Of a DNA stretch of 64,000 nucleotides, positions 157 through 41,176 are shown piece by piece. The notes beneath the pieces were generated by a model. It searched no databases, was not told the origin of the DNA, and saw only the letters and a program-made list of their open reading frames with translations. Source of the stretch: an uncultured bacterium (GTDB taxonomy: Bacteria; Planctomycetota; Uabimicrobiia; Uabimicrobiales; JABWCH01). Location: contig CALKWO010000084.1 in assembly GCA_938003875.1 (NCBI GenBank), forward strand, positions 4,128 to 68,127, given 5' to 3'. Position 1 is the first letter of the stretch; the number at the start of each line of letters is the position of its first letter. The position numbers were made by a program, and so were the translations under genes.

Positions 157-3100
157 TTACTGCCATGTTTTTAATTCCATGACAGAATCATTCCATTGTT
201 TTGCCATATAAGCCAAAATCCGCCTGAGCATTTCTCTTCGGTATTCCAGAAGCCATGCACTCAGAATCAGAATGCTTCCTAAGCTTGCCCACCAGATTGC
301 CTGGGGAATAGTGCCGAAATTTACGTATGCAAAAAGCAGGAGCAAGATATCGCTTAGCAAGAAAACCGTACCTGAGAAGAAGAAAATAAGACGCTTTTGG
401 GTGACTCCATAGATAAGTACAGCCAGGGATTCGATAGACAGGAAAAGAGAATGGTATAGATGCTTATAGGGCGAAATACCTAAAGGTGCAAGGTGAGCAA
501 ACCATCCTGAACAGCTTTGTACCAGGGTAGGCAATAAAATCAAGACAATCCCCAGGAAAAAGCAATCGTTGTGGTAGTCTGCTTCTTTGTCGGATTTCTC
601 GAAGATATAACCCAGAACAAGAAGAAACAGCCCTAATGGCACTGTATAGAATTCCCAGACATTGGCAGCCCATGAAATCAGAGTGGCATAGTAGGAAAAA
701 AAGAAGCTTAGTGCAGCAAGTCCAAGGTGTTTTCTTGTAATTCTATACAAAACGAACAAAAGAATGGCACTTACCAGAGAAAGGGAAATTGGATAGTAGA
801 GACTTGCATGGGGAACTCCCACAAACAAGAAGAAAAAGGCAACATGAGCCAGATAGCCATTCTTGAGCATAGCGTCTGTCCAAATTTCCGCAAGCCTGCT
901 TTTGGTGGCTGCTGCAAGATAAAGCAAAAGCAAGGCAAGGACTATGGCAACAAGCATGAAAGTATCGATGGTGAAAGAATAGTATGCTCCCATAGCAAAA
1001 ATTCCGACAACACCAAAAGATACGCTCAGGAAAGCAAGCATCTTTTCCTGGATTTTATGCGCTACTATACCATAGAAGATGCCTGACAGGAACATCAAAA
1101 TCGAGAGCGAGAGACTACCCTGGTTTTTAGATAAGGCCAGAATAGGCGCAAGAAGAGTCAGACCTAAAAAAGCATGGAAAAATTCTGTCTTTCGTAGAAG
1201 TAGTGCCAGCCCTAGAGAAATCAAGGAAAGAAGGATATACTGGAATTCTATGATGTTTGTATACAGAGAAAGCTTTTCCAACATGAGATAGTAGGCAATA
1301 GCAAATAGCGTTACGGATGTATAGGACATGGTCTTTCGACTCAGCCAGAGCTTCTCTACAGGGAAAAAAGAGAGTAGCGCAAAAGAAACAGAACAAACCG
1401 ATAGCGTCATCAACGTAGGATTGACGATTTTCCCCTGAACCAATACAGACACAATCAGCCCCATGTTGCAAAGCAAGTTTACCCTGAAGATAGGAAGAGC
1501 AAAAGAAAGATCATTTTTTTTCTTGATAAGATAGGCTATCATCAGCAAGAACACATTTCCCAGAGAAAGGATAAAGGTCATCTCATTGCCATGAAATTTT
1601 TTGCTTGCAAACAAGGCTGCGAGAAGACAGGCTAAAAAGAGAATGCTGCTCAGATAGCAATAGAATGTCTGGCGATATAGGACAATGTATAGGAAATAAT
1701 AGGCAAAGGCCAGGCCAATCACAAAGGTCGAAACCAGAGCACCAGGCGTTACGCCAGGCATGAGGAAAGGCAAGGCGAGGAATGAAAACACCGTAAGCTG
1801 TGCTGTGGAAAAAGCTACCTTTTTGACGAGCGAATCTTCTCTGAGGTGTTTGCTCAGTGCCAGGAGAGCTATGGCTACAGGGATGAAGTACAGTGCGTAC
1901 TCAAAGGCATACAAATTTCGGGGCAGCCAGAAATAGTAGTGTACATACCCAAAAATAAATAGTGTATGCATGGTGAATAGATTGGGTGAGTAGCACCATA
2001 ACCCGATAGAGGCAAAAAAGAACAGGAAAGTAAACAGGATTCCTGTTTTGATTTCTGTAGCATAATAGAAATTCCAATGAACCAAAAGCTGAACAAGACA
2101 CAATAGTATCAGAACAGACGCATAGCCTCCCAGAATTCTAGCAATAGAGGCATGGGAATAGAAAAAGTAGATTGCCAGGATCAAGGCAAGGATAGCAAGA
2201 AACAGGTACAGAGTACCCCAGGAATAGAAATCTATCTTTTCGTGAAAAACAAGGAAGAAGCCTGCCGTGAAATAGGCAAGGCTAAAGACAATGTCTGTTC
2301 TTTTCTTGTATAGAGCAAGACGAATGAGGAAGAAAAGCATTCCTAGAAATACAGTGCTTTGAGCAATCCACAGATCATAGCCCAGAGAGCGAAAAAAAGA
2401 TACTAGAGTAAATGCGATTACAAGCAAAAGTGCAAACACAGGCAACACAGAAAAAACTTTGCTGTAAGAACACAGGAAATGCCCTGACACAAAGAAAAAA
2501 ATGCCCAACGCCGTCATGGAAAAACAGATATACTGTAAGCTTGCATCCAGCCTGTTGGCATGAAGAACACACAGGACAAGAAGAATCAATATGCCCGCAA
2601 GCATCATGTCTTTTCTTTGCAAAGAAATAGAGCAATAGATGTAAAAACACAAAGCAAAGACAAGAATCATGGTCAGCGTGTTAAAGTGTTCTTGGTAGAA
2701 TTCTTTTCCCCAGATAGCGACAAACACCAAGACCATAAGCACAACAATATGAGAGGCATAGAAAAGGGGTCTTTGTATCCATTCTTTTTTCTTCCAGAGA
2801 GGAAGATACTCCAGCCCTGCAAGAACCAGTCCCCAAAGTAAAAATAAGACAGACCAGGTAGAATGGCTGATGGTCGTTGTTTTTTGATACAAATTGATAA
2901 TCAAAAGCCCATTCATGGCAATGGCCAGGGAAGTGCAAAAAGCACTATGGTAAAGGCGATTGATGGCTATGTATCCAAGCATCGCAGCAACAGGAAAAGC
3001 TACAAGGCCTGATTCCTGTACATGGGTTGTGTATGCGCCCAGAATACAATATACAACAAGAACCACTGGCACAGCAATAAATCCAACCGCCTGAACGAGG

Positions 3101-4728
3101 TCTTTTCCCTTATCAGGGAGATAAGGAGCATACCGAGGCATCAGACCAAGCATCAGAAAAGAAGCCAGTACAGGCAAGATTCCCTGCCAGAAAGTTGCCA
3201 TTCCTGCGATATGGCTAAAACCTGCAATCGCCAGTAGCAAAGAAATAGACGTGCTGGCACAGGAAAACAGGGCAAAAAAAGGATGAGGCAAGAAAAGAAT
3301 CTGGAGAAGCCCCAAAGCAGAGGTACATAGCATGACCCAGGAAAAAATATCTGTGTTCCACCAAAAAACGCATTCTACAATGGCTATTAGCGAGATTAGA
3401 TTCGCTGCGGACTGCAAAATCAAGGTAATCAAAGCAAGCGTTTTTTTCTGGGTGAAATAGGCTGGCAGAAGGAATAGAATCGAGTTCAAAGCGAAAAATA
3501 AGGCAAATTTTTCGGAAGGAACAATAAATTTTTGCAGTGTCAGGAAATGCGACCAGAAAACGAGAATACTGGCAAGCAAGGTAAACAAGGCACTTCGTAG
3601 CAACCAGGCATTCCAGGCAAAAAGCAAGCTTGTAAGCCAAAAAACGATATAGCGATTGCCATGATCCGCCAGCAACCCTACTTTTACGGCAAAGTAGAAA
3701 TTCAGGGGGAAAAACACAGATGCCAGAAGCACAAGTGTGAACCCGATTTTATGAATCCACTGGTTTTTTCTAAGGATGTTGTAGCCTACAGCAAAGCAGG
3801 TAAGAGTGCATAGCAGAAAGCTTCCAAAAACCAGATATTTATAGCTTTCCCAATGGCTTCGTAAAAAGACGACAACAGCAGTGAAAACAAAGGATACGCC
3901 TAGAATCAAAAGGATAGTGACAATGTTCTGGCTTAAAAAGGAAGCAAGAGCAAAAGAAGATTTTGGCTCAGGCATTTTTTCTGGAATAGAGACACTCTTC
4001 TCTGTTTTTTCTAAAGGAGCAGAAGACGTTTTATCCTCCTGCTTTTCCGTAGCAATTTTCTCAGGAATCGCAACAGATTGTCTGAAATCTTGTGGCTCTA
4101 TCACAGATACACAATAGAACCATGCAAAAGCAAGACATAAAAATTCTGGGCTGTGATCTAGGATTCCATGATTGAAAAAGCATATCGCCAGAAAAGTGAG
4201 AATCTCCCATGCCAAATTGCCCGCTGCTTTGCTTATATTGCTTTTGGCTAAAGCAAAGACTTTATAGAGTTTTTTCCTTCTCAGGCCTAAATACCAGTAA
4301 AGGCCAAGAAAGATGCCGATTCCTATAATATTATGCCTGCTAGGAATCATACAAAGCAGTATGAGAAAAACCAGAACAGCGATGCCTCTTCTTGTCCAGA
4401 GTGCCTTCTTGTCTGTTATTTTCCTGATCAGGAAATCCAGTGTCATATCCACTTTGATTGCCCCTGCAATCCACCAAAAGATAAGCAGCGCAGAGACCCA
4501 ATACCAGTTATATCTGGAAGAAAAATGATAGTGAATTATGAACAGAGTAAGGGTCAGTTTTATCGCTGTTTTGATAAGATAGGGATTGCTAAAGAGGACT
4601 TTCCAGCGATTGTAGCTGGCTGTAAGCCAAAAGACAGCAAGAACAAATGCCAGCAAAGCGGATTCATAAATCATTCCTGTTATAGCAAGCACAATGGCAA
4701 ATAGTATCCCAATCTTTTTTGTGGACAC
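157..4728 (-). CDS. Giant (1523 aa) polytopic integral membrane protein, family not recognised
   Basis: One uninterrupted ORF, almost entirely hydrophobic helices (dozens of TM-like segments). The only clear soluble linker is at about aa 215-265 (…AIPEKIATEKQEDKTSSAPLEKTEKSVSIPEKMPEPKSS…). Starts 3 nt after the stop of the SPFH gene. Confidence 0.8.
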   Translation of the reverse strand: MSTKKIGILFAIVLAITGMIYESALLAFVLAVFWLTASYNRWKVLFSNPYLIKTAIKLTLTLFIIHYHFSSRYNWYWVSALLIFWWIAGAIKVDMTLDFLIRKITDKKALWTRRGIAVLVFLILLCMIPSRHNIIGIGIFLGLYWYLGLRRKKLYKVFALAKSNISKAAGNLAWEILTFLAICFFNHGILDHSPEFLCLAFAWFYCVSVIEPQDFRQSVAIPEKIATEKQEDKTSSAPLEKTEKSVSIPEKMPEPKSSFALASFLSQNIVTILLILGVSFVFTAVVVFLRSHWESYKYLVFGSFLLCTLTCFAVGYNILRKNQWIHKIGFTLVLLASVFFPLNFYFAVKVGLLADHGNRYIVFWLTSLLFAWNAWLLRSALFTLLASILVFWSHFLTLQKFIVPSEKFALFFALNSILFLLPAYFTQKKTLALITLILQSAANLISLIAIVECVFWWNTDIFSWVMLCTSALGLLQILFLPHPFFALFSCASTSISLLLAIAGFSHIAGMATFWQGILPVLASFLMLGLMPRYAPYLPDKGKDLVQAVGFIAVPVVLVVYCILGAYTTHVQESGLVAFPVAAMLGYIAINRLYHSAFCTSLAIAMNGLLIINLYQKTTTISHSTWSVLFLLWGLVLAGLEYLPLWKKKEWIQRPLFYASHIVVLMVLVFVAIWGKEFYQEHFNTLTMILVFALCFYIYCSISLQRKDMMLAGILILLVLCVLHANRLDASLQYICFSMTALGIFFFVSGHFLCSYSKVFSVLPVFALLLVIAFTLVSFFRSLGYDLWIAQSTVFLGMLFFLIRLALYKKRTDIVFSLAYFTAGFFLVFHEKIDFYSWGTLYLFLAILALILAIYFFYSHASIARILGGYASVLILLCLVQLLVHWNFYYATEIKTGILFTFLFFFASIGLWCYSPNLFTMHTLFIFGYVHYYFWLPRNLYAFEYALYFIPVAIALLALSKHLREDSLVKKVAFSTAQLTVFSFLALPFLMPGVTPGALVSTFVIGLAFAYYFLYIVLYRQTFYCYLSSILFLACLLAALFASKKFHGNEMTFILSLGNVFLLMIAYLIKKKNDLSFALPIFRVNLLCNMGLIVSVLVQGKIVNPTLMTLSVCSVSFALLSFFPVEKLWLSRKTMSYTSVTLFAIAYYLMLEKLSLYTNIIEFQYILLSLISLGLALLLRKTEFFHAFLGLTLLAPILALSKNQGSLSLSILMFLSGIFYGIVAHKIQEKMLAFLSVSFGVVGIFAMGAYYSFTIDTFMLVAIVLALLLLYLAAATKSRLAEIWTDAMLKNGYLAHVAFFFLFVGVPHASLYYPISLSLVSAILLFVLYRITRKHLGLAALSFFFSYYATLISWAANVWEFYTVPLGLFLLVLGYIFEKSDKEADYHNDCFFLGIVLILLPTLVQSCSGWFAHLAPLGISPYKHLYHSLFLSIESLAVLIYGVTQKRLIFFFSGTVFLLSDILLLLFAYVNFGTIPQAIWWASLGSILILSAWLLEYRREMLRRILAYMAKQWNDSVMELKTWQ

Positions 4729-7542: not shown

Positions 7543-9300
7543 CTATACGATGCCACGAGGTTTTTTTTCACAATAATGAGTATGAAGCAATTCATGAGCT
7601 TTGTGCCCATTGGGCGTACCTAAAAATTCTTCATACAGCTTCTTTATATATTCATTTTCATGAGATTTGCGAAGCTTTTTCTGGCTGTCTATCGTATACA
7701 ATGCCTTCGCTCTTTGCTGGATTAGTTCAGTATCCATGATATGGATGCCTTCGGGAGGATAAGGCTGTCCACCGCCACCAATGCATCCTCCAGGACATGC
7801 CATGATTTCAATAATGTGGTATTTCTTTTCACCTCTTTGTAACTTGCCAAGAATGTGTTTAGCATTTTCCAATCCGTTAGAAACAGCAATGCTCAAAACT
7901 TTACCATTGATAGTGAGTTCGGCTTCTTTTGCTCCTGCCACTCCTCTCACCTGATGAAAATCGAGATTTTCGCAGACTTTTCCAGTAAGTTTTTCGTATG
8001 CAGTCCGCAGCGCAGCTTCCATGACACCGCCTGTAGTTCCAAAAATATCGCCTGCTCCAGAGGAAAGGCCTAAAGGATTATCAAAATCACTGTCATGAAG
8101 GTGCTGGAAATCAATTCCATAGCATTTCATCATCCAGATAAGTTCTCTCGTTGTTAAAACGGTATCTGTATATGGATATCCATCTTTTGATATATGTTCA
8201 GGTCTTTTGGCTTCATATTTTTTTGCTGTACAGGGCATGACCGCTACGACGTAAATATTTTTAGGATCAATTCCCTCTTTTTCAGCATAGTATGTTTTCA
8301 ACAAAACGGATTGCATAGACATTGGAGAACGACAAGTGGATGCATAAGGAATCAACTCTGGATAAAAGTGTTCCATAAAATTGATCCAGCCAGGAGAGCA
8401 AGAAGTGATCAAAGGCAAATTTTCATTTTTTTCCAATCGAGTCAAAAATTCCGTAGCTTCCTCGATAATTGTCAAATCTGCACTGAAATTTGTATCGAAA
8501 ACTTTAGCAAATCCCATCAGTCGAAGAGCAGTGACCATTTTCCCCGTTGCAGGTGTTCCAATGGGGTATCCAAATCCTTCGCCAATAGCCGCACGAATAG
8601 AAGGTGCTGTATGAACAACAACGTGTTTCTTTTTATCCATCAATGCCTGAAAAACTTCTTCCGTATGATTGTGTTCTATAATAGCAGCAGTAGGACATAC
8701 GTTTGCGCATTGTCCACAATGTACGCATACAGATTCTTGCATTGGCTTCATATAAGCAGGAGCTACCACCATATCGCTTCCTCTATGATGCTGACTCAAG
8801 TTATTTACTCCCTGCACTTCAGAACAGACTCTTACGCAACGACCACAAAAGATACACTTTTCTGGATTTCGAGCTATGGCAGGAGAAGAAATATCTTTGG
8901 AATGATGGTTACGTTCCTTGACATTAAAAAATCTTTGTCTAATTCCAAGATCATAAGCCAATTTCTGTAGTTCACAGTTGCAGTTTCTTTCGCATGTCTG
9001 ACAATCCTGGGGATGATTGTTGAGAATTAACTCCACAATATCACGCCTCAACTGTCGAAGAGATGTAGAATGTGTGTGTATCTTCATACCTTCCTGAACT
9101 GGATAAGTACAAGATGCTATTGGTTTGGGAAAACCTTCTACTTCTACCAGACAAACGCGGCAAGAGCCTTGAATGCTAAGATGAGGGTGATAGCAAAGTC
9201 TCGGTATATGGATACCTATTGCATCGGCTGCCTGCAATACTGTGCTTCCTGCAGAAATTTTTGTTTTTATACCATCAATCGTAAGATTCACTTCCGTCAT
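7543..9300 (-). CDS. [FeFe]-hydrogenase, CpI-like M3 architecture (2Fe-2S, His-ligated 4Fe-4S, 2x 4Fe-4S, H-cluster domain)
   Basis: N-terminal 2Fe-2S ferredoxin fold (CYHPHLSIQGSCRVCLVEV). HPQDCQTCERNCNCELQ. CIFCGRCVRVC and CVHCGQCANVCP. H-cluster motifs TSCSPGW (L1 variant), MPCTAKKYE (L2) and EIMACPGGCIGGGGQP (L3). Confidence 0.93.
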   Translation of the reverse strand: MTEVNLTIDGIKTKISAGSTVLQAADAIGIHIPRLCYHPHLSIQGSCRVCLVEVEGFPKPIASCTYPVQEGMKIHTHSTSLRQLRRDIVELILNNHPQDCQTCERNCNCELQKLAYDLGIRQRFFNVKERNHHSKDISSPAIARNPEKCIFCGRCVRVCSEVQGVNNLSQHHRGSDMVVAPAYMKPMQESVCVHCGQCANVCPTAAIIEHNHTEEVFQALMDKKKHVVVHTAPSIRAAIGEGFGYPIGTPATGKMVTALRLMGFAKVFDTNFSADLTIIEEATEFLTRLEKNENLPLITSCSPGWINFMEHFYPELIPYASTCRSPMSMQSVLLKTYYAEKEGIDPKNIYVVAVMPCTAKKYEAKRPEHISKDGYPYTDTVLTTRELIWMMKCYGIDFQHLHDSDFDNPLGLSSGAGDIFGTTGGVMEAALRTAYEKLTGKVCENLDFHQVRGVAGAKEAELTINGKVLSIAVSNGLENAKHILGKLQRGEKKYHIIEIMACPGGCIGGGGQPYPPEGIHIMDTELIQQRAKALYTIDSQKKLRKSHENEYIKKLYEEFLGTPNGHKAHELLHTHYCEKKPRGIV

Positions 9301-9667: not shown

Positions 9668-10465
9668 TTATCGCATATCTCCGAATTTTTTTGTCAGGGC
9701 ATCCTGTCTGGATAGGACTTCCTTATAGTAGTCTCGCATTTTTAATTTTGAAGCGGCTGCTTCGTCAATAAGAAAAGTCGTGTTAGGGTGCATTTGAAGG
9801 ATGGATGCTGGCCATAGAGCACTGAGGGGCGATTCCACTGCATTGGCGATAGCAGATGCTTTATGCTCTCCAAATGCCATCAAAAGAATACGTCTGGCTT
9901 CTGTGATGGTACCGATTCCCATCGTGATTGCCAGATGAGGCTGAAATTCTCCTTCTTGGAAAAATCGCCTGTTGTCCTGAAATGTCTGGTTCGTCAGTGT
10001 TTTGATTCGCGTTCTCGACCCCAAGCTGGAAGTTGGTTCATTGAAGCCTATATGACCATTGGCACCAATTCCCAATATTTGTAAGTCTATGCCACCAGCA
10101 TCTCGAATCATCTTTTCATACTGAGGCCCTACATCCATAGGATTCTCTGCCATACCATCAGGTACATGGGTATTGTTCATATCAATGTCTATATGCTTGA
10201 ATAGATTCTCGTTCATAAAATAGCGATAGCTTTGGTGATGCGAAGGAGGCAGGCCAATGTATTCATCCAGATTGAAAGTGATGACTTTTTGAAAAGAAAT
10301 CGTCCCTTTTTTATAGCGTAGGATTAACTCTTGATAGAGTGCTAGAGGTGTGCTGCCTGTTGCAAGGCCAAGAACAGCATGGGGTTTCTTTTTCAGTAGG
10401 GTACAGCAAATATCCCCCCCGCGTTCAGATACCTCTTGCGAAGAATTGACAATAATCACTTCCAT
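9668..10465 (-). CDS. nagB: Glucosamine-6-phosphate deaminase
   Basis: GLATGSTPLALY, FNLDEYIGL and GIGANGHIGFNEP motifs. Start moved to MEVIIVNSS (ATG 10465) because GGGAG lies upstream; the ORF track extends to 10525. Confidence 0.9.
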   Translation of the reverse strand: MEVIIVNSSQEVSERGGDICCTLLKKKPHAVLGLATGSTPLALYQELILRYKKGTISFQKVITFNLDEYIGLPPSHHQSYRYFMNENLFKHIDIDMNNTHVPDGMAENPMDVGPQYEKMIRDAGGIDLQILGIGANGHIGFNEPTSSLGSRTRIKTLTNQTFQDNRRFFQEGEFQPHLAITMGIGTITEARRILLMAFGEHKASAIANAVESPLSALWPASILQMHPNTTFLIDEAAASKLKMRDYYKEVLSRQDALTKKFGDMR

Positions 10466-10532
10466 ATTTTTCTCCCACATTATTATAGAATCCCAGGGCA
10501 ATGCCCTGGGAGATAGAATTATCATGGATAGG

Positions 10533-11786
10533 CTAGAATTTATCGAATGCGATCATGGATTCGGGGACATGATATTTTTTCTGAAGAAGATCCAGGACAG
10601 CATCAATCATCATGGGAGGCCCGCATAGATAGTATTCGATTTGTTTTGGGTCTGCGTGCTTGGAAAGATACATCTGATCGCACACGCTATGGATAAAGCC
10701 TGTTGGTCCTTCCCATACATCTTCTGGCTGCTTTTCGGATAGAGCTACGTTGAAACTGAAGTTGGGACAGTTTTTCTGTAATTCACTAAATTCTTTATAG
10801 TAGAACATTTCCTTGACAGACCTTGCACCATACCAGAAAGTGATCTTTCTGTTGCTTTTGATCTGGTTGAGCAAATAGAACAGATGGGAGCGCATGGGGG
10901 CCATGCCTGCTCCACCGCCTAAATAAAGCATCTCTCGATCTGTTTCCTTGATGAGGAATTCGCCGTAAGGCCCGCTGATTTCGACTTCGTCTCCTGGTTT
11001 CAGATTGAAAATATAAGATGAACCCAGACCAGCACTATGGCTCGTTCCTTTAGGAGGAGTGGCAATACGCACATTCAGCATGACAACGTCGTTTTCGTAA
11101 GGTGCACTGGCCATAGAGTAGGCACGGTAGATTACAGCTTCCTTGCTTTGCACTTTGAGATTTTCAAAAGGCTTATAGGCACTTTGGAACTGTTCTTCTA
11201 TTGCAAAATCCTTGAAATTACAGGTATATTTAGGAATATGGAACTGGATGTATTGACCCGCTTTGAACTTGATCTCTTTGGGGTTGACAAGTTCCAGAAC
11301 CGTTTCTTTTATATAGCTTGCCACATTACGATTAGAACGTACTCTTGCTTTGAAAGCCTGGATGGCAAAATATTCTTCAGGGATGAAAATTTTTACATCA
11401 CTCTTCACCTTTACCTGGCAGGACAAACGCCATTGATCGCGAATTTCTTTTTTGGTGAGAAAGCCTTCTTCAGTAGGTAAAACAGGCCCACCATTTTCCA
11501 GAACCTTCACCTTACAATATCCGCATGTTCCCTGGCCACCGCAAGCAGAAGGGACAAAAATTTTATTGGAAAAAAGATAGGATAGAAGACTGCTACCGCC
11601 TCGTACTTTAAGAGGCTCTCTTTCTTCTCCCATATCAATTTTGCATTCGCCATAGTTGGCTATGGTAGCATCGGAAATGGCCATTACAATAGCCAGGAAA
11701 GCCCCTATACCACCTAGTATTCCTATGGATAAAAGATAGGCACTGATGTTGCTTTCCATTAGAATAAAAAACAAAAAGATTTCCAT
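10533..11786 (-). CDS. nqrF: Na+-translocating NADH:quinone oxidoreductase subunit F (TM anchor + 2Fe-2S ferredoxin + FAD/NAD(H) FNR-like domain)
   Basis: CGGQGTCGYCKV plant-type 2Fe-2S motif. RAYSMAS FAD motif. GGGAGMAPM NAD motif. Last gene of the nqr-ordered operon. Confidence 0.9.
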   Translation of the reverse strand: MEIFLFFILMESNISAYLLSIGILGGIGAFLAIVMAISDATIANYGECKIDMGEEREPLKVRGGSSLLSYLFSNKIFVPSACGGQGTCGYCKVKVLENGGPVLPTEEGFLTKKEIRDQWRLSCQVKVKSDVKIFIPEEYFAIQAFKARVRSNRNVASYIKETVLELVNPKEIKFKAGQYIQFHIPKYTCNFKDFAIEEQFQSAYKPFENLKVQSKEAVIYRAYSMASAPYENDVVMLNVRIATPPKGTSHSAGLGSSYIFNLKPGDEVEISGPYGEFLIKETDREMLYLGGGAGMAPMRSHLFYLLNQIKSNRKITFWYGARSVKEMFYYKEFSELQKNCPNFSFNVALSEKQPEDVWEGPTGFIHSVCDQMYLSKHADPKQIEYYLCGPPMMIDAVLDLLQKKYHVPESMIAFDKF

Positions 11787-11807
11787 TTCTTACCTTTCAT
11801 TGAAATA

Positions 11808-12398
11808 TTATTGCATGCTCACAACACCAGCGAAACCACTGAAAGCCAGAGCCATAATCCCTGTAATGATCATGGTAATTCCGATACCTTCCAGAGATTT
11901 AGGTACATTGGAAAATCGCAATCGCTGGCGGATGGCTGCCATTCCTATTATGGCAAGGGACCAGCCTATTCCACTGGCGATTCCGTAAGAGATAGACTGA
12001 AGAAAGGTATAGTTGCGTACTATGGAAAAAAGACATGCTCCGAGGATAGCGCAGTTGACTGTAATCAAGGGAAGGAAAATTCCCAGAGCAAAATACAGAG
12101 TAGGGCTGTATCTTTCGACTACCATTTCTACAAATTGAACCAGGGCAGCAATCACCATGATGAAAATCAAAAAATAAAGATACTCCAGGCCTAATGGCTT
12201 TAGAATAAGATGGAATATCAGCCAGTTTACTGTAGTAGTAATGCTCATCACGAAGGTAACAGCGCAGCCAAGCCCAAAAGAAGCCTTCAGTGTTTTAGAG
12301 ATAGCGATGAAGGAACACATTCCCAAAAAATTGGACAAGAGAATGTTGTTCGTAAAAATCGCTGCTATAAAGATTATAATAGGATTGATTTCCGACAT
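11808..12398 (-). CDS. nqrE: Na+-NQR subunit E (RnfA/NqrE family)
   Basis: 196-aa 6-TM protein with FTNNILLSNFLGMCSF. Position in the operon fits. Confidence 0.88.
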   Translation of the reverse strand: MSEINPIIIFIAAIFTNNILLSNFLGMCSFIAISKTLKASFGLGCAVTFVMSITTTVNWLIFHLILKPLGLEYLYFLIFIMVIAALVQFVEMVVERYSPTLYFALGIFLPLITVNCAILGACLFSIVRNYTFLQSISYGIASGIGWSLAIIGMAAIRQRLRFSNVPKSLEGIGITMIITGIMALAFSGFAGVVSMQ

Positions 12399-12417
12399 AC
12401 ATTATTTCCTTATTTCC

Positions 12418-13068
12418 TTATTTTCCTTCTTGGGCGACTTTTTTGCCCGAAGCGTTGACGATCCAGATTAAAGTTCCCAACATCAAAAAAGCTCCTGGAG
12501 GCATAATCATGATATTCCAGGCAATCCAACTTTCCTGAGGAAGTATAGGATAGTAGCAAATGCTGCCAAATCCGAGAATTTCCCTTGGTATAGCAATGGC
12601 TATTAAAATTATGGAGTAACCAATACCAGCACCAAGCCCATCCAGAAAGGAAGGCCAGGGACGATTTTTCATGGCAAACACCTCAGCACGGCCCATGACG
12701 ATACAGTTTGTAGCAATCAAGCCAACATAAGCCCCTAGTTGTTTGCTGACTTCATAGGAAAATGCCTGAAGCAAGAGGTCAACGATGGTCACAAACACTG
12801 TAATGATTAGAACCTGTGTAATCATGCGGATTCGCCCAGGAATGTATTCTCTAAGCAAAGAGACAAAAACATTCGTAGCAACTGTAACCACAATAAGAGC
12901 AATGCACATAATCAAGGTATTGTACACAAGGTTTGTGACTGCCAGGCAGGAACATATACCTAAAATCTGGCGGAAAATAGGATTTTCTTTCCATATATTT
13001 TCCAAAAATACTTTTTTGTTTTCAGCACTGAACAAACTCATTTTCTTAAGCTCCTTAGCAGCAGGCAA
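12418..13068 (-). CDS. nqrD: Na+-NQR subunit D (RnfE/NqrD family)
   Basis: N-terminal AKELKK…NPIFRQILGICSCLAVT matches the Vibrio NqrD N-terminus as I recall it. That requires the TTG start at 13068, 2 nt after the nqrC stop. An alternative ATG lies at 13041. Confidence 0.85.
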   Translation of the reverse strand: MPAAKELKKMSLFSAENKKVFLENIWKENPIFRQILGICSCLAVTNLVYNTLIMCIALIVVTVATNVFVSLLREYIPGRIRMITQVLIITVFVTIVDLLLQAFSYEVSKQLGAYVGLIATNCIVMGRAEVFAMKNRPWPSFLDGLGAGIGYSIILIAIAIPREILGFGSICYYPILPQESWIAWNIMIMPPGAFLMLGTLIWIVNASGKKVAQEGK

Positions 13069-13070
13069 AA

Positions 13071-13988
13071 CTATGGTTTTGCTTCTGGAAAATTCTTTAA
13101 AAAAGCCTGTGTGTTCGCATCGAAAAATTCTTTATCGTTTTTATCTCTTACAACTTTGGCCAGTTTGCTAAAAACATGGTAAAGATTTTTGCTGATGAAG
13201 CGATCCAGGGCACGACTTGTCTCGGAAGCTCCTGTGATAGCATCCACTTCATTCTGTTTTTTATCATAGTTGGCCGTTGCTTCGCCATCGTAAGTGCCTT
13301 TCCTGGCGGTCACTCTTAGTTCAGGCTTTAAGGAACCTTCCCTGAAGATTGTTTTGTTCCAGAAAGTGAATTGTCCCTGGAACCATCCTTCCTCTATTCT
13401 CTGTCCCAGGCCTGGGGTTTCCTTATGGTCGTAGAAAGTGATTCCTGCTATGTTCCTGAAGCCTTCTTTGAGTGCAATATATCCAGAGACTTTGTCCCAA
13501 AATCCAGCCCCTGCAATCTCAAAGGTATATATTGACTGGCCTTCTTTTTTGGCCTGGAAAATATATAGGTTATGCAAATAGTCTATCTTTTGAGAAGGAA
13601 GATAGGCAAATTCTTTTCCCTTATAGAAAGTAACTTCATTTTGGGAAGTAACTTCCAGGACATCAATGCAACTGCTGAATGTTTCCAGAATTTTTTCTGT
13701 TTTTTCTTTTTTCAAATAGTACTCGGTTCGTTCAATTCGGATTGCTTCTTTTTGGAATTTTTCCTGAATCGTATTTTCTGGCATATTGCTAAGTTTTTCA
13801 TCTTTAGCCAGAAGGTTTTCTACTTCCTGAGGGAGAATGCGCATGGATTTTAAAATATGGATAAATCTTTCTCTCTGCTTATTTTTGGCGATATATTCTT
13901 TTGTTTCTAATGCAAAAAATGTAAGCAAAATAGCAGAAATCACAGAGAGTACGAAGAGGAACAATATCATACGAATGTAGTTTTTCAC
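13071..13988 (-). CDS. nqrC: Na+-NQR subunit C (RnfG/NqrC, FMN-binding), longer than usual
   Basis: N-terminal TM helix. FMN_bind-like C-terminal half with the flavinylation-type motif DAITGASETS. Overlaps the nqrB stop by 4 nt. Confidence 0.85.
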   Translation of the reverse strand: MKNYIRMILFLFVLSVISAILLTFFALETKEYIAKNKQRERFIHILKSMRILPQEVENLLAKDEKLSNMPENTIQEKFQKEAIRIERTEYYLKKEKTEKILETFSSCIDVLEVTSQNEVTFYKGKEFAYLPSQKIDYLHNLYIFQAKKEGQSIYTFEIAGAGFWDKVSGYIALKEGFRNIAGITFYDHKETPGLGQRIEEGWFQGQFTFWNKTIFREGSLKPELRVTARKGTYDGEATANYDKKQNEVDAITGASETSRALDRFISKNLYHVFSKLAKVVRDKNDKEFFDANTQAFLKNFPEAKP

Positions 13989-15187
13989 TTTTTTACCCCC
14001 CGATAGCGAACCATGATAACGATTTCATCAATCAATGCGGCAAATATGTTCATGAGCAAAATAGCGAACATGATCCCTTCCGCGTACCCAGAAAATCTAC
14101 GAATCACAAGAGCGATGCAGCCAATGGCAAAACCATAGAAATAGCGGCCTGCTTGCGTTACAGGCCCAGTTACAGGGTCTGTTGTCATAAAGATAGCACC
14201 AAACAGGAACCCCCCTGAAAGAAGGCTGAAAGCAACAAGATAAAGGCGATCTGCCAGGCAATGGGCATCATAGAAGAAGAAAGCGCATATTGCTCCACCT
14301 GCTATGGTTGACAAGATAGTACGCCAGTTGGCGACTTTCATCACCATCAACGCGATTCCACCTAAAATCAATAGGACTGAGCAGGTTTCTCCCATAGAAC
14401 CACTTCGATATCCCCAAAGCAGATTGGGAATAGTTTTTTTTACATATTCCATATATTTCTTGTAGTCTTCTTGCGTGCTTCCTTCCTCTGCGAGTTTCAA
14501 ACGCAATTCTTTGGCTTTGGCTAGAGGAGTGGCCTCGCTGACAGCCTCGTATTTCCCATTTTTTTTCTCATGAGAAAGCAAACCACGATGGGAAGTAAAG
14601 CCCCCCAATCCTTGGAAAACAGGCTTATAGTTTTCTACCGAAATACTATTGGGATAAGGTTCGACAAAGGCTCCACCTGTCATATAGAGAGGAAAAGCAA
14701 TATAGAGAAAGCAGCGAGCGACGAGGGCTGCATTGAAAGGATTCTTGCCCGTGCCGCCAAAGACTTCTTTTCCAAAAATGACACCAAAAAAGATCCCCAC
14801 AGAAATCATCCATAGAGGAATGGTGGGCGGTAATATCAAAGGGTATAGAATTCCTGTAATCAAAAAGCCTTCTGTGATTTCTTCTTTGCGCACAATGCAA
14901 AAAACGACCTCCGTAAGACCACCAACAATGTAGGAAGTCAGAATCACCAGAATTGCCCGTTGTCCATAGAAATAAACAGATGCAATCGCAGCAGGCAAAA
15001 CAGCGAAAAGCACCATAATCATAAACCGTTTTATATCAATCCCTTCTCGTATATAAGGCTTTTCCTTTGTTGTATGAGGTGTGCCATAAAAAAAATTGTC
15101 GCCAGCATCAACCAGAGGTTTGAGGGGGCGAAGAAAAGGGTATTTTTCCAGCATTTTATACTGTAAATCAAAAATTTTTCTAAACAT
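13985..15187 (-). CDS. nqrB: Na+-NQR subunit B (RnfD/NqrB family)
   Basis: NqrB-type N-terminal extension (…PLVDAGDNFFYGTPHTT…IDIKRFMIMVLFAVLPA). Polytopic. Flavinylation-like EAVSEATPL. Confidence 0.88.
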   Translation of the reverse strand: MFRKIFDLQYKMLEKYPFLRPLKPLVDAGDNFFYGTPHTTKEKPYIREGIDIKRFMIMVLFAVLPAAIASVYFYGQRAILVILTSYIVGGLTEVVFCIVRKEEITEGFLITGILYPLILPPTIPLWMISVGIFFGVIFGKEVFGGTGKNPFNAALVARCFLYIAFPLYMTGGAFVEPYPNSISVENYKPVFQGLGGFTSHRGLLSHEKKNGKYEAVSEATPLAKAKELRLKLAEEGSTQEDYKKYMEYVKKTIPNLLWGYRSGSMGETCSVLLILGGIALMVMKVANWRTILSTIAGGAICAFFFYDAHCLADRLYLVAFSLLSGGFLFGAIFMTTDPVTGPVTQAGRYFYGFAIGCIALVIRRFSGYAEGIMFAILLMNIFAALIDEIVIMVRYRGVKK

Positions 15188-15241
15188 ATTCCTTGTATTT
15201 CCTTACATGGATAAACGATAAATGTCATCCTTCTTAATTTT

Positions 15242-15493
15242 TTAGATTGAAGAGATAGCTACCTCGCCTGATGGCATAGGTAAACTAAGCAACCTTTCTT
15301 CCATTTGCTGTACTTTATCTTCTAATTCTAAAAGAATTTTTTGAATCATTTCTACTTCTTCATCTCTAATCAAATATTGTCCACACTGCTGGCATACATA
15401 GGCAGGAAGATTATCAATCACTAACTGGTATCCCCTTTTTTTATGAAATAGGGAATCTTTCCTATTTTTAAGTTTCCTTTGCAATAGTAGCAT
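15242..15493 (-). CDS. Small zinc-ribbon protein resembling the C-terminal half of a YgiT-type zinc finger, followed by a coiled coil
   Basis: …VIDNLPAYVCQQCGQYLIRDEEVEMIQKIL… matches the second knuckle of YgiT-type fingers; the first CxxC is absent. Lies between nqrA and nqrB on the same strand, 4 nt after the nqrA stop. Confidence 0.5.
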   Translation of the reverse strand: MLLLQRKLKNRKDSLFHKKRGYQLVIDNLPAYVCQQCGQYLIRDEEVEMIQKILLELEDKVQQMEERLLSLPMPSGEVAISSI

Positions 15494-15497
15494 TCCA

Positions 15498-16916
15498 TCA
15501 TAGCTCTTTTTTCAATTCTTCTTTGCCTTTTTGTATATCATTCATAATCGAAATTTTGGAAGGGCATACATAAGAGCATAGTCCACATTCTATACAGGCG
15601 TGAAGCCTGATCCCTTTGGCTTCCTCTGCCATCCCATGAGAGCAATATTTATGCAGCAAATGAGGGTACAAGGGTCTGGGACAAATGTCTTCACAATAAG
15701 CACACTGAATGCAAGGTCTGTGTTCTCCATGCAGATTTGTATCTAGCTTTTTCCCAAAGGGAAGGAAAGAGCTAACGAAAGTCTTGCTGTTAGAATCTGA
15801 CCTAAAACCAGGTTGCAGGAATGCTAGGAAATGACGCGTCTTGTCATCTTCTATACAACTTGTGGATTTGATATCTCTGCCAATGGGAGTAAGCTGCATG
15901 TTTTCAGCCATGTCTCCTGTGAGGGGATCACCTAGCAAGAATCTTGTTTCTGTATCACGCCTTGCAAATTGCTCTGCGATTTCGCTTACAGGGGTTCCAA
16001 CCCTTACTTTGAGAATTTTGTTTTCTTTGTAGCCTTTGCCCCCTAGAGAAATCCATTTTTCGATGACAGGCTTTCCAGCCGAAAGAGCTTCATAAACAGC
16101 TATGGTATCGGCGATGTCCAATACCACAGCACCGATAGCATCAGGCTTTTGTCCATCAGGAACACATATTCCCGTCAGAGATTCTGTCAGAATTTCTGGA
16201 AGTTCCTGGGGATATTTGGGAGACAAAAATTTTATGGCAATCCCTTTGCTTTGTGCCAGTGCATTTTCCAGGCTTTGGGCAAATTTTTTATCTTTGGAAG
16301 AAACGCCTATATAAACAGGCACATCCTGATAGAATCTCTGCAAGGCTTGTATTCCCATAGAAATAGCAGAAATCTTACTCTCATATACAAGGCCAGTGGG
16401 CATAGCAAAAGGTTGGGTTTCCAAAGCGCAAACTATCAAACATTTTACCTTTTCTATCTCTAAGGCACTAGATTTTTCTAAAGTAGGCAAACCTGTAGCA
16501 CCCAAAGAACTCACACCACTCATATACAGAAGACGGCTTATGCTTTCTTTATTCAATTTGAAGAGATCCTGCTTTGCTCCTTCCAAGAGCACGATATCTT
16601 GAGATGCACTGGCATCAAGGATGGCGGCCAGAATTTTTTTGCCTTTGTATTCTACTTCTCGTATTTCTCGTACAGTTCCATTTACACTGGAATGGACAGG
16701 AGTGGATATTCCTTCGCTGCCTTTCCCGATAATCTGGCCTGCTTTAACACTATCTCCTGCTTTGACCAAAGGTATGGTCTGTTCTCCAAATCCCTGAGCA
16801 AAAGGAATTACAACATACTTGGGGATTTTCATTTCTTCAACATTCGCTTTCGGTATACCTTGAATATTCTTAAACAAATACCCGCCCCGAAAGCCTTTTG
16901 CACAACAAATGCTCAT
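15498..16916 (-). CDS. nqrA: NqrA-position subunit with RnfC-like features (barrel-sandwich N-terminus, degenerate nucleotide-binding motif, two intact 4Fe-4S ferredoxin motifs)
   Basis: FRGGY…IPLVKAGDSVKAGQIIGKG N-terminus. SSLGATGLPT. KYPQELPEILTESLTG. GDPLTG. C-terminal CIQCAYCEDICP and CIECGLCSYVCP. First gene of the operon. Confidence 0.8.
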   Translation of the reverse strand: MSICCAKGFRGGYLFKNIQGIPKANVEEMKIPKYVVIPFAQGFGEQTIPLVKAGDSVKAGQIIGKGSEGISTPVHSSVNGTVREIREVEYKGKKILAAILDASASQDIVLLEGAKQDLFKLNKESISRLLYMSGVSSLGATGLPTLEKSSALEIEKVKCLIVCALETQPFAMPTGLVYESKISAISMGIQALQRFYQDVPVYIGVSSKDKKFAQSLENALAQSKGIAIKFLSPKYPQELPEILTESLTGICVPDGQKPDAIGAVVLDIADTIAVYEALSAGKPVIEKWISLGGKGYKENKILKVRVGTPVSEIAEQFARRDTETRFLLGDPLTGDMAENMQLTPIGRDIKSTSCIEDDKTRHFLAFLQPGFRSDSNSKTFVSSFLPFGKKLDTNLHGEHRPCIQCAYCEDICPRPLYPHLLHKYCSHGMAEEAKGIRLHACIECGLCSYVCPSKISIMNDIQKGKEELKKEL

Positions 16917-17097: not shown

Positions 17098-17844
17098 TTA
17101 AATATGCACATATCGTAAAAAGGCCAATATAAAAATTGCTATTGCAAGACTATAAAATGTTCCTGTTTCTGGTATCGAAGAATAGATCCCATTTATCTGG
17201 GACAGGGAAAGAACATCCGTAGTAAAGAAAACTTCATCTACCATGCCATAAAGAAGGGTATCATTGCTATAAGTATAGCTGTTGCCTATTCTAAGCTCTT
17301 GCCCTGCGCCAGTGCTATGCCTTTCTTCCATGGAGCTGGAAATAGCAAGCCTCGAACCTACCAGAACACCATCAATATAAAGGTACATTGTATCTCCATC
17401 AAATGTCTGCGCAACATGATGCCAGACACCTGTGGAAATGGAATGAGAAAGAGAAGTACTTCCACCACAAACATAAGAATATAGCCTTCCGTTGCCATGG
17501 TATGTTAATCCATAGGCTAGATTTGACTGTGCGACCAGACCTGCATCGCATGCTGTTGCAGCAATGGACGGATCTATATAAACCCATGCTCCTAAAGAAA
17601 AGCTTGTAAAATTGGCATTCAAAGAAGAAGAAACTAGGGAAAGATAGCTATTCTTTTGGAAATTAGCGGCATTGTTCACAAGTCCCGATGCAATAGAGAC
17701 TGATCCCAATTGTGCTGACAAATGGTTTCCATTTCCACTGGTATCCTGAAAATTGCTGTCAAAGCTCCATTGTCCAAGCATTGCTGCATGAAGCCCTACA
17801 GCGCATAGTAGATATAAAAATAAAATATCTATTGTTCTTGCCAT
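17098..17844 (-). CDS. Secreted LamG-like (concanavalin-A-like lectin) protein with a variant PEP-CTERM-type tail
   Basis: Signal peptide MARTIDILFLYLLCAVGLHAA (ATG 17844, AAAGGA RBS). LamG_3-like FDGDTMYLYIDGVLVG. C-terminal IPETGTFYSLAIAIFILAFLRYVHI. Confidence 0.7.
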   Translation of the reverse strand: MARTIDILFLYLLCAVGLHAAMLGQWSFDSNFQDTSGNGNHLSAQLGSVSIASGLVNNAANFQKNSYLSLVSSSLNANFTSFSLGAWVYIDPSIAATACDAGLVAQSNLAYGLTYHGNGRLYSYVCGGSTSLSHSISTGVWHHVAQTFDGDTMYLYIDGVLVGSRLAISSSMEERHSTGAGQELRIGNSYTYSNDTLLYGMVDEVFFTTDVLSLSQINGIYSSIPETGTFYSLAIAIFILAFLRYVHI

Positions 17845-17863
17845 AAAAAAAATTCCTTTCTCT

Positions 17864-19399
17864 TTATTTTTGGCGAATGCCATTTCTCTGCCAGAAATAA
17901 AGCACTATAATAAAACCCAGGAGTATAGCAGTGGCTGGTTCAGGAATCGCAGTTCCTATTCCACTTCCTAGCTTGATATAGTACTGGCCTTCATAGATCC
18001 AGCTATCGCCTATGGCTCTGTTTCCATCATCTCCAGGGAGCAGACCGCCGTAATATTTCCAGGGAGTTCCACCAACCAAGATGTCTATAGGATTCAGTCC
18101 TGCTTTTCCATTAGAATATAGTGTTGTCAGTGCATTTAGTTCTTCTGTGCTATAATCAAAATTCCAGACATTGTTGATCGTACTCGCTATGGTTTCGTAA
18201 GTTTCTACACTCACCTGATACAAGGATGCTATCTCGTTTGCATCCAAAGCTCTGTTCCATATAGCTGTATCATCCATAGCCCCCTGGAGAGTTTTGTCTG
18301 CTGTGGCCCATCCAAAGCTTATATAGCTTGTGTTTAGGAAGCTCATAGGTGCCTGTGCCTGGGATTGCAAGATACCATTTTTATATAATTTTGTAGTTGT
18401 CCCATCGAAAGTCGCAGTGATAAGAGACCATTCGTTAAGATTGAAAGAAGTAGCCAGATTGGCGATTTCCCCTGGCACAATATCATGCTGGATATAGGTA
18501 GGATCAATGAACAATCTCAAAGCATCACCACCAGGATTTTGTAACAGCATAAGCCCCTGCCTGTTTCCAGCACCCTGGATTTCAGGTTTGACCCAACAAG
18601 AAAGAGTATAGTTGTTCAAATTCAAAGAAGACGTATTGATCCCAATATAATCGTTGACTCCATCCAGATCTAAAGCATTGCCAAATTTTCCTGCAACTGT
18701 AGCATTGTATCCTGGGACAGGCTCATAACCGCTACCAAAATTAGCTACACCACTAGAATTATGATGGACAGCCGAGGTATAGCTCTCTCCATTGTAAATG
18801 TTTTTTCTGACATTTCCTGATCCATCTGTGATAGCTACATTTTTCAGATAAGCTGTTTTGGTTGAGGTATAGTCAACTTCACAGGCAATATCATAATACC
18901 CTATTGTCCTTCCTACATGACTTTCAGGCAAAGCAATTTTTCTGTGATACCATTGGTTTACAGCATAACTGGATAAATTACTAGCAGGGTGAGCACCTAC
19001 ACCATTCTGATCTTTTGTGGCACTACCATCATTCATGCGAGTATCTCGTAGTGTACCTCCATCCGTCAGAGTATAGTCAAAAGCAATCCTGTCGTCGTTG
19101 GATGTCCACATCACATCGTATTCAAGATAGCTCCCAGAAGTAATGGTATAGTCTGTTACACTGGTTAAATCCTGATATCCATAAGCATTACCACCAAAAT
19201 AGGTCATATTAAAAGACGCTTTTAGCCCTGTACCATCATACAAAATTCCTTGCCTTGAACCAGCAGAGTCAGAAAAATTTGGGCCGCTGATTTCATCGAA
19301 TTTCCAGAGTCCTATAGCAGAATTGTAGTCATCTGCAAAGGAAACAGAAGAAAGGACAATAAAAAAAATTAAAAAACTTATTTTTTTGTTTTTTAGCAT
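17864..19399 (-). CDS. Secreted LamG-domain protein with canonical PEP-CTERM sorting signal
   Basis: Signal peptide. LamG_3 signature (GKFGNALDLDGVNDYIGI…TATFDGTTTKLYKNG…MDDTAIWNRALDANEIASLY). C-terminal IPEPATAILLGFIIVLYFWQRNGIRQK. Confidence 0.8.
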   Translation of the reverse strand: MLKNKKISFLIFFIVLSSVSFADDYNSAIGLWKFDEISGPNFSDSAGSRQGILYDGTGLKASFNMTYFGGNAYGYQDLTSVTDYTITSGSYLEYDVMWTSNDDRIAFDYTLTDGGTLRDTRMNDGSATKDQNGVGAHPASNLSSYAVNQWYHRKIALPESHVGRTIGYYDIACEVDYTSTKTAYLKNVAITDGSGNVRKNIYNGESYTSAVHHNSSGVANFGSGYEPVPGYNATVAGKFGNALDLDGVNDYIGINTSSLNLNNYTLSCWVKPEIQGAGNRQGLMLLQNPGGDALRLFIDPTYIQHDIVPGEIANLATSFNLNEWSLITATFDGTTTKLYKNGILQSQAQAPMSFLNTSYISFGWATADKTLQGAMDDTAIWNRALDANEIASLYQVSVETYETIASTINNVWNFDYSTEELNALTTLYSNGKAGLNPIDILVGGTPWKYYGGLLPGDDGNRAIGDSWIYEGQYYIKLGSGIGTAIPEPATAILLGFIIVLYFWQRNGIRQK

Positions 19400-38382: not shown

Positions 38383-38471
38383 AAATTTCTTTAATTAAAG
38401 ATAATGTACAAAAAACAAACTCTGGCACTGTTCATGCCAGAGTTTACAGTTAATTACAACAATATAGCATC

Positions 38472-40097: not shown

Positions 40098-40172
40098 GAA
40101 AGTTCTCCACTCCTAAATTGTAAATAAAGGAACAATAGTATGATAAAACGACCTTGAGAAGGCAATAGAGAA

Positions 40173-40745: not shown

Positions 40746-41176
40746 TGTAAATTTTTCACTCCATCAATTTTCCAAGTTCCATTTTCTTCCACAAACACAA
40801 ACATGGTTCTGTTGTTCTGAAAATTGACTGTAGTGATTGCCCAAATTTGTTTGCCATTATAAGCACTCTGGACAATCGTGTCTATTCTTGCGTCTTTCAG
40901 ATGCTCGCTCCCTACCTGCTGCATATTCTGAGAAAATCTTTCCAGAGAGCGATCTTTCTGCCATCTACTAGACAGCATTTGATAGGCTTTTTTCCAATCT
41001 TGATGTTCACATGCTGCCTTAAACTGCATAAAAGCATCTTTTTGCGGGGTCAAGGCCTTAGGCTTGGACTCCGATTCCTGGATCAGCTCATTTTCTTCAT
41101 TGACCTTGACCCAGCAACCCGACAGAAAAAACATGCACACAAGACAAACAGAAAGATAGAATTTTTTTATACCCAT
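40742..41176 (-). CDS. Lipoprotein, NTF2/DUF4878-like fold suspected
   Basis: Lipobox FFLSGC. 144 aa. Lies inside the pilus cluster. Confidence 0.5.
   Translation of the reverse strand: MGIKKFYLSVCLVCMFFLSGCWVKVNEENELIQESESKPKALTPQKDAFMQFKAACEHQDWKKAYQMLSSRWQKDRSLERFSQNMQQVGSEHLKDARIDTIVQSAYNGKQIWAITTVNFQNNRTMFVFVEENGTWKIDGVKNLQ

Follow-up and report, generated by a model that had tools for sequence, protein, structure and literature searches.

The nqr operon of the window

The window analysed here is a stretch of 64,000 nucleotides (nt) of contig CALKWO010000084.1, which derives from an uncultured bacterium of the Planctomycetota (Uabimicrobiales, JABWCH01). It contains an nqr operon whose first subunit, A, carries both 4Fe-4S motifs of a C-terminal ferredoxin domain, and this subunit, its operon and their relatives are described below. 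The operon consists of six intact open reading frames (ORFs) on the minus strand, tightly spaced or overlapping, in the order A-B-C-D-E-F (10533-16916), and one small ORF is inserted among them (Table 1). By order and content the operon is Nqr and its last gene encodes a bona fide NqrF, as an initial annotation made from the DNA alone had proposed. F reaches 487.9 bits on the nqrF equivalog TIGR01941 (cutoff 295) and forms a 100% clade with canonical NqrF, to which it is sister and with which it has in common two insertions in the flavin adenine dinucleotide (FAD) domain that are missing from compact F proteins. No RnfB is found within or beside the operon, NqrF standing in its place.

Among the membrane subunits, D passes the NqrD model NF006777 (243.8 bits, cutoff 235). 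The best-scoring model for each of B, C and E is likewise an Nqr model, with 319.6 bits (cutoff 414) and 311.6 bits (cutoff 349.9) for B, which scores 235 on rnfD, 99.9 bits (cutoff 144) for C and 236.7 bits (cutoff 247.55) for E. B also has the NqrB-type N-terminal arm noted in the initial annotation, which is missing from the Rnf references, and both B and C bear clade-specific insertions. The cofactor ligands of B to E are all present (Table 1), and every residue that is invariant over 68 Rnf/Nqr-type cores is kept in the window core. In the flavinylation motif of C, Ser occupies a position where most NqrC and RnfG proteins have Thr; the Ser variant is conserved in the related loci L001, L021 and L092-L094, and Neisseria NqrC likewise reads SGAS. 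No family match to ApbE or NqrM was obtained among the approximately 45 scanned ORFs of the window; both genes were found in the Klebsiella and Ruegeria reference loci. Adjacency of apbE and nqrM is common in Proteobacteria but not universal.

Table 1. Position and description of the operon parts and of other genes in the window
Feature	Position	Strand	Length (aa)	Description
Subunit A	15498..16916	-	472	RnfC-like NqrA homologue; barrel-sandwich N-domain, NuoF-like domains, C-terminal 2x[4Fe-4S] ferredoxin domain
First 4Fe-4S motif of A	15678..15713	-		CIQCAYCEDICP, aa 402-413; CxxCxxCxxxCP
Second 4Fe-4S motif of A	15561..15596	-		CIECGLCSYVCP, aa 441-452; CxxCxxCxxxCP
Degenerate flavin/nucleotide loop of A	16482..16511	-		SSLGATGLPT, aa 136-145; RnfC equivalent G[ILM]GGA[TG]FPT
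Other motifs of A				FRGGY aa 9-13, KYPQE aa 234-238, LTG aa 247-249, GDPLTG aa 329-334
ORF between A and B	15242..15493	-	83	YgiT/MqsA-like half zinc ribbon
Subunit B	13985..15187	-	400	NqrB type; NQR2_RnfD_RnfE family; N-terminal arm; flavin mononucleotide (FMN) attachment at Thr220 (SEATPL)
Subunit C	13071..13988	-	305	NqrC type; FMN_bind domain; flavinylation motif ITGASETS (TGAS, aa 252-255)
Subunit D	12418..13068	-	216	NqrD; Rnf-Nqr membrane protein; Cys39 and Cys122, intramembrane 2Fe-2S ligands
Subunit E	11808..12398	-	196	NqrE; Rnf-Nqr membrane protein; Cys28 and Cys116, ligands; Nqr-type GMCSF signature
Subunit F	10533..11786	-	417	NqrF; transmembrane (TM) helix, 2Fe-2S (Fer2), FAD_binding_6 (RxYS), NAD_binding_1 (GGxGxxP)
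Glucosamine-6-phosphate isomerase-like gene	9668-10525	-		Between nqrF and the [FeFe] hydrogenase gene
[FeFe] hydrogenase	7543-9300	-		Monomeric; Fer2_4 + NADH-G_4Fe-4S_3 + Fer4 + Fe_hyd_lg_C + Fe_hyd_SSU
LamG-domain proteins	17098-19399	-		Two adjoining Laminin_G_3/LamG-domain proteins directly upstream of the operon
ORF	157-4728	-	1523	No Pfam match at E<=1e-5
Type II secretion/type IV pilus-like cluster	37318-46599	-		Two T2SSE ATPases, secretin, T2SSF; two long pseudopilin-like proteins (N_methyl + T2SSG)
Stand-alone A-T-TE protein	50192-52816	-		Nonribosomal peptide synthetase-like; AMP-binding + PP-binding + Thioesterase
Rubrerythrin-like protein	56571-57095	-

Subunit A: fold and ferredoxin domain

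Subunit A is closer to RnfC than to NqrA, both in sequence and in predicted fold. Pfam matches were obtained to RnfC_N (4.9e-18), Complex1_51K (1.1e-13) and 4Fe-4S dicluster domains (1.2e-6). On the rnfC subfamily model TIGR01945 the protein passes marginally (248.1 bits, cutoff 245.95), and on the NqrA models it reaches 120.4 bits for TIGR01936 (cutoff 321.05) and 163.6 bits for the best of them (cutoff 450); ten further A proteins from the loci surveyed also stay below every NqrA cutoff. When compared by sequence with solved structures, A matches RnfC at 1e-29 to 2.9e-41 and Vibrio cholerae NqrA at 2.2e-14. An AlphaFold2 model (predicted local distance difference test score, pLDDT, 86.6; predicted template modelling score, pTM, 0.86) is confident apart from residues 1-6 and the linker 359-399. 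In a Foldseek search with this model, RnfC of Acetobacterium woodii, Azotobacter vinelandii and Clostridium tetanomorphum ranked best (TM-score of the query, TMq, 0.79-0.82; E about 1e-32 to 1e-35), followed by V. cholerae NqrA (TMq 0.73, E about 1e-28).

The initial annotation had called both 4Fe-4S motifs of A intact and had quoted five further RnfC-like or degraded blocks, all of which are found in the protein as given (FRGGY, SSLGATGLPT, KYPQE, LTG and GDPLTG). The nucleotide range that it assigned to the motif pair, 15561-15713, is exact, and its residue range, 402-451, ends one residue short of the actual 402-452. The presence of both clusters' motifs in an A subunit of an Nqr operon is thus a real and well-supported finding. 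Among the matches listed, the eight cysteines are invariant in 120/120 homologues, all of which keep both motifs and miss the glycine-rich loop (G-loop) of RnfC; the cysteines are also invariant in a 32-sequence alignment, and therefore the two motifs are not a product of chance. Conservation within A is highest in the ferredoxin domain, with a mean top-residue frequency of 0.68 versus 0.49-0.58 for the other globular domains and an identity to the nearest homologue of 86% versus 67-75%. In a metagenome sample anchored on NqrF, 30 A subunits had neither motif, five had both and none had a single one. This all-or-none pattern, together with the invariance across phyla, favours a redox role for the clusters that the motifs are predicted to bind. 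Canonical NqrA (L081-L084, L089), in which the second motif is reduced to the remnant LC[TS][YF]VCPGK, retains one to three residual Cys at that position, such as LALCTYVCPGKYEY in Klebsiella and Neisseria. These residues are a visible fossil of the ferredoxin domain.

The flavin/NADH region was compared in an alignment of A with five RnfC and five NqrA references, drawn from annotated records of Klebsiella, Ruegeria, Neisseria, Prevotella, Bacteroides, Monoglobus, Parabacteroides, Fusobacterium and Methylococcus. All four signature motifs of the RnfC/NuoF type for flavin and NADH are degenerate in the window protein, G[ILM]GGAxFPT being replaced by LGATGLPT, NAAECEPY by ALETQPF, KYPQGGEKQL by KYPQELPE and GGPMMG by GDPLTG, so that the degraded nucleotide loop of the initial annotation is borne out. 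The suggestion in the same annotation that the complex has two electron-input modules is not. In such a complex, A would bind flavin and NAD(P)(H), and NAD(P)H at F would be linked to NAD(P)+ at A in an ion-coupled reaction of a transhydrogenase-like or Rnf-like kind. The narrow pass of the rnfC cutoff and the Complex1_51K match are in line with this arrangement, and the A family has kept the PT..K and KYPQ parts of the RnfC pocket and a loop of conserved length (consensus LGxxG[ILF]PT) with invariant G142 and P144, by which a residual ligand site is possible. However, GxGGAxFPT, ECEPY, GGEKQL and GGPMMG are lost not only in the window but in every F-containing operon, and the A subunits of the Phycisphaerae type show NqrA-like deletions in the flavin/NADH region although their clusters are kept; moreover, electron transfer from NADH to NAD+ gives no driving force. 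With every one of the four motifs degenerate, A does not provide a second site for NADH, and two nucleotide sites are very unlikely. A role of A as an exit wire, or its survival as a relic, is more likely.

Distribution of cluster-bearing A subunits

Of the candidates scored in a search of 5.8 billion proteins with A, 724 clusters reached E<=1e-10, and a scan of GTDB with one genome per species confirmed relatives in at least 586 species genomes. The initial annotation had allowed that Cys-complete forms might be both common and already described; common they are, but no description of a Cys-complete NqrA was found in the searchable literature including bioRxiv preprints, a scope that leaves most subscription journals outside, so that an earlier description is possible. 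Carriers among the matches listed are labelled as Omnitrophota, Planctomycetota/Phycisphaerae/Pirellulales, Spirochaetes, Endomicrobia, Thermotogae, Bipolaricaulota, Fraserbacteria, Dethiobacter and Syntrophomonadaceae. The source names of the homologues are inconsistent, with '4Fe-4S dicluster domain-containing protein' at NCBI and 'NqrA' or 'RnfC' at JGI. The closest relative among the matches listed is a Candidatus Brocadiia metagenome-assembled genome (MAG; L001), with identities of 73% for A and 93% for F.

The six-gene operon of the window type recurs in L001, L092 (GCA_964585305.1), L093 and L094, with lengths of about 470-486 aa for A, about 392-400 for B, about 300-305 for C, 208 for D, 196 for E and 416-418 for F. 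The possibility was also considered that the operon is an assembly or annotation artefact or is decaying into a pseudo-operon, for which one could point to the metagenome-assembled source of the contig and to the odd ORF at the A-B junction. The identical A protein is, however, present on 6 contigs from NCBI, ENA and Logan assemblies, the six ORFs are intact and tightly spaced or overlapping, and their cofactor ligands are all conserved, which reduces this possibility to a negligible one.

The gene in the F position could be judged in 57 loci that were long enough, nearly all of which show A-B-C-D-E followed by a 2Fe-2S input module. Most frequent is a compact NqrF-like protein of about 360 aa (TM helix, Fer2, FAD and NAD domains, without the NqrF insertions), which occupies the position in 34 loci. 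A Fer2-only or Fer2-fusion protein is present in 14, a long NqrF in three and a truncated F in two; the remaining four have none, three of them being ordinary Firmicute rnf loci. Thermotogae loci (L037-L041) have the RnfC-like iron-sulfur A immediately upstream of B-F.

Two further arrangements were observed. In the first, found beside a Cys-complete A, the F position is taken in L003, L005, L013 and L023 by a 149-aa protein with a TM helix and a 2Fe-2S ferredoxin domain, and in L006, L012, L019 and L027 by a protein of about 320 aa that also joins a TM helix to such a domain. The ferredoxin domain of these loci may stand alone or be joined to a NuoE-like, thioredoxin-like 2Fe-2S domain, and a NuoF/HydB-like flavoprotein comes next, which in L012 is fused to a GltD/NfnB-like module; L005 has an additional Fer2_4/Fer4 protein. 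Judging from these domains, such operons would be ion pumps wired to a NuoEF/HydBC-like NADH module, an arrangement of which we know no description. In L016 and L034 (also L031-L033 and L045), from Bipolaricaulota and Fraserbacteria, A is closest to RnfC but without the G-loop, and is followed by proteins that join Fer2 with the RnfB-type 'FeS' domain PF04060. These loci may represent an even earlier stage in the replacement of the input module.

Phylogeny and order of evolution

Trees were built by neighbour-joining with a simple distance correction and 100 bootstraps. In a concatenated B+D+E tree (739 columns, rooted on Rnf), all F-containing operons form one clade (81%), in which {L021, {window, L001}} groups with canonical NQR and a 25-member group of the Phycisphaerae/Pirellulales type at 99%. 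In the A tree, canonical NqrA and RnfC are each monophyletic at 100%; NqrA together with the Phycisphaerae type splits off at 98%, RnfC together with the Bipolaricaulota type at 99%, and the window with L001 (100%) lies in the grade between the two splits, grouping with NqrA in 0/100 bootstraps. By these splits, Cys-less canonical NqrA is nested among Cys-complete forms. The subunit phylogenies that the initial annotation had called for thus place A outside canonical NqrA, B, D and E with Nqr, and F beside canonical NqrF.

The same annotation had left open whether the complex is an intermediate or a mosaic. A recent mosaic would have arisen by recombination of an rnfC gene into a canonical nqr operon of this lineage, and in the comparison with L001, A has indeed diverged further (73% identity) than any other subunit of the operon (80-93%). 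Yet NqrA has been reported as the fastest-evolving subunit of canonical Nqr (PMC4014512), and the 99% split that unites RnfC with the Bipolaricaulota type leaves the window out. The guanine-cytosine (GC) content of A and its value at third codon positions (GC3) match the rest of the operon, and the trees of A and of the core largely agree, which favours stepwise vertical evolution over recent recombination. The architecture of an iron-sulfur A with an F, moreover, is found in dozens of phylum-diverse loci, and the six-gene order of the window recurs in independent assemblies. An early-branching position of the window is also common to the trees of A, B+D+E and F. A recent mosaic is accordingly highly improbable, and it is the intermediate that stands, from graded motifs as well as tree positions.

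The gradation starts from RnfC, with all motifs and eight Cys, and passes through the Bipolaricaulota type, the Omnitrophota type, the window type and the Phycisphaerae type to canonical NqrA, which is without clusters and keeps the remnant only. A subunits of the Phycisphaerae type are without the G-loop and still have eight Cys. This series agrees with the intermediates that Reyes-Prieto et al. (PMC4014512) had postulated, and it fixes the order of loss, with the flavin/NAD site disappearing at the start and the clusters at the end. On these sequence comparisons, the window operon is best read as an early-branching Nqr lineage close to the Candidatus Brocadiia MAG, with the gain of NqrF and the loss of the FMN/NAD site dating from before the clusters were lost on the way to canonical NqrA.

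Proposed electron route

With moderate confidence, the operon is interpreted as a functional, early-branching Nqr-type pump and a preserved intermediate, whose A subunit descends vertically from RnfC, has lost its FMN/NAD(H) site and has clusters that most likely lie on the electron path. NADH would be oxidised at NqrF, with electrons passing through FAD and then 2Fe-2S. From there they would follow the route known from Rnf and canonical Nqr, through the intramembrane 2Fe-2S of D/E, the covalent FMNs of C and B and the riboflavin of B. By homology with Rnf (PMC9588780, PMC11889175), the clusters of A would take electrons from this riboflavin, so that the two [4Fe-4S] probably extend the path toward the final acceptor. 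A itself, having lost its FMN/NAD(H) site, would be neither a NAD+ reductase nor a second entry for NADH. The electrons would finally reach either menaquinone, where A and B meet, or an acceptor that is soluble or peripheral; the potential of the acceptor should be above that of NADH, since ion export in Rnf and Nqr goes with electron flow from F to A. In this planctomycete lineage, whose B and F are of the canonical type, menaquinone would be the simplest candidate, and a soluble acceptor is possible. In evolutionary terms, recruitment of NqrF and loss of the RnfC flavin site would have come first, and the loss of clusters, giving canonical NqrA, last.

Several points weigh against this interpretation. 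The assembly and redox activity of the clusters in A are predictions from sequence, and the trees are coarse; those of B+D+E and F disagree on whether the window clade or the Phycisphaerae type is sister to canonical Nqr (65% versus 100%). B, C and E remain under the NCBIfam Nqr equivalog cutoffs, and PT..K and KYPQ of the RnfC pocket persist in A. Among the approximately 45 ORFs scanned in the window there are no quinone-biosynthesis genes and no candidate acceptor. Finally, the clusters could be off-pathway, as the canonical NqrA fold survives without them and riboflavin can reduce quinone directly.

The last point leads to an alternative in which the complex is an ordinary NADH:(mena)quinone oxidoreductase, with quinone reduced at NqrB directly by riboflavin, and the clusters of A are structural relics that serve only folding or stability. 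Canonical NqrA works cluster-free (PMC12174285, PMC11889175), B, D, E and F are all of the Nqr type, and a chain through A is without an obvious endpoint because the former FMN site beside cluster C1 is degenerate. On the other hand, across phyla no part of A is as constrained as the ferredoxin domain, none of the relatives examined departs from the eight Cys, and no partial decay was seen. Many of the carrier lineages (Thermotogae, Endomicrobia, Omnitrophota, Spirochaetes) are not known to make quinones, by which another exit route is suggested at least for them. Structural relics are thus an unlikely explanation, though one of some weight, and clusters on the electron path are preferred.

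Implications for the Rnf/Nqr superfamily

NqrA is currently viewed as a cofactor-less remnant of unknown function. It is stated to be without cofactors in a 2014 evolutionary study, in Rnf structure papers of 2022 and 2025 and in a 2025 review, and two of the Nqr/Rnf papers of 2014-2025 place the origin of Nqr in Chlorobi/Bacteroidetes (PMC4014512, PMC12174285, PMC11889175). The window operon and its relatives can be seen as living intermediates that reveal an order of events, namely the gain of the 2Fe-2S/FNR input module, the loss of the RnfC flavin/NAD site and, last, the loss of the clusters, and they shift the origin of NqrF-type pumps to a much broader, mostly anaerobic radiation. Two questions become experimentally approachable, the original role of NqrA and the role of 'Nqr' in anaerobes, some of them perhaps quinone-free; several cultured species appear to carry such operons. 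Cluster-bearing A subunits fit no curated family. Their names vary between 'RnfC', 'NqrA' and '4Fe-4S dicluster protein', and this inconsistency lies behind claims in print that nqrA is missing.

A wider and more tentative proposal, which we regard as possible rather than probable, is that Nqr pumps with a cluster-bearing A may form a third functional class of the superfamily. These would be driven by NADH or by a NuoEF-like module, with electrons leaving through the two [4Fe-4S] of A to a non-NAD and possibly non-quinone acceptor, and would be widespread in anaerobic Planctomycetota, Omnitrophota, Spirochaetota, Thermotogota and Bacillota. Nqr would then have arisen stepwise from this older radiation and not by a single swap of RnfB for NqrF in Bacteroidota, and cluster loss would mark the switch to direct quinone reduction at NqrB.

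Inserted ORF and neighbouring genes

The ORF between A and B starts 4 nt past the stop of A and ends 54 nt ahead of the start of B. Its product matches TIGR03831 at 25.5 bits with a single CxxC pair only, and its GC content is 33.7% versus 38-43% for the nqr genes. As it is also missing from all relatives checked (L001, L092, L093 and L094), it was rejected as a conserved extra subunit and is probably an inserted antitoxin-like fragment.

Downstream of nqrF, the second gene encodes the [FeFe] hydrogenase, which indicates a fermentative anaerobe. The hydrogenase was considered as a conserved partner of nqr and rejected, since synteny of the flanking genes with L001 is limited to the six nqr genes. 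The rubrerythrin-like protein fits an anaerobic lifestyle as well. Upstream of the operon, the LamG assignment rests on a Pfam scan for the protein at 17864-19399 and on a precomputed Laminin_G_3 match for that at 17098-17883; the former has a PEP-CTERM-like C-terminal sorting signal (IPEPATAILLG...), which was read by eye. The other genes recorded are listed in Table 1.

Comparison with known systems

The window operon has much in common with canonical Na+-NQR, for which V. cholerae (PDB 7XK3/8A1U), Klebsiella, Neisseria, Prevotella and Bacteroides served for comparison. Gene order, the NqrF domains with both insertions, the NqrB N-terminal arm, the flavinylation sites of B and C and the four Cys of D/E are the same, and the cores fall in the same 99% clade. 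The differences concern A, which has both four-cysteine motifs, whereas canonical NqrA is without cofactor and retains remnants of the second motif only (PMC12174285); A also lies outside the NqrA clade and scores 120 bits on TIGR01936 (cutoff 321), and the insertions of B and C are specific to the window clade. With Rnf (RnfCDGEAB; A. woodii 9ERI, C. tetanomorphum 7ZC6, A. vinelandii 8AHX), the operon shares an A subunit of RnfC fold (TMq about 0.8) and its 2x[4Fe-4S] domain, which in RnfC receives electrons from the riboflavin of RnfD (PMC9588780). Unlike in Rnf, RnfB is replaced by NqrF, the FMN/NADH motifs of RnfC are lost, and B, D and E group with Nqr.

Operons of related content have been reported under other descriptions. 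An 'NqrBCDEF lacking NqrA' was described for Pseudothermotoga lettingae, P. thermarum, Clostridium ultunense and Alkaliphilus metalliredigens, with a non-quinone acceptor proposed (PMC5924567), and for Brocadiales-related MAGs the annotation is ambiguous between NQR and RNF, with nqrA given as missing (PMC9325076). Like the operons described here, these clusters come from anaerobes and combine Nqr-like B-F with no recognisable NqrA; the Thermotogae loci of the present survey have an iron-sulfur A upstream, and the published clusters lacking nqrA may correspond to the Cys-complete-A operons surveyed here. In contrast to the present analysis, neither paper recognised an A subunit in the RnfC-like gene upstream, and the F of those clusters is compact (about 360 aa), unlike the canonical long NqrF of the window.

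An analogy may also be drawn with cluster N7 of bacterial complex I, an off-pathway Fe-S cluster that is retained in some lineages without an obvious role in the main path. N7 belongs to an unrelated subunit and complex, however, and the clusters of A sit on the ancestral electron route.

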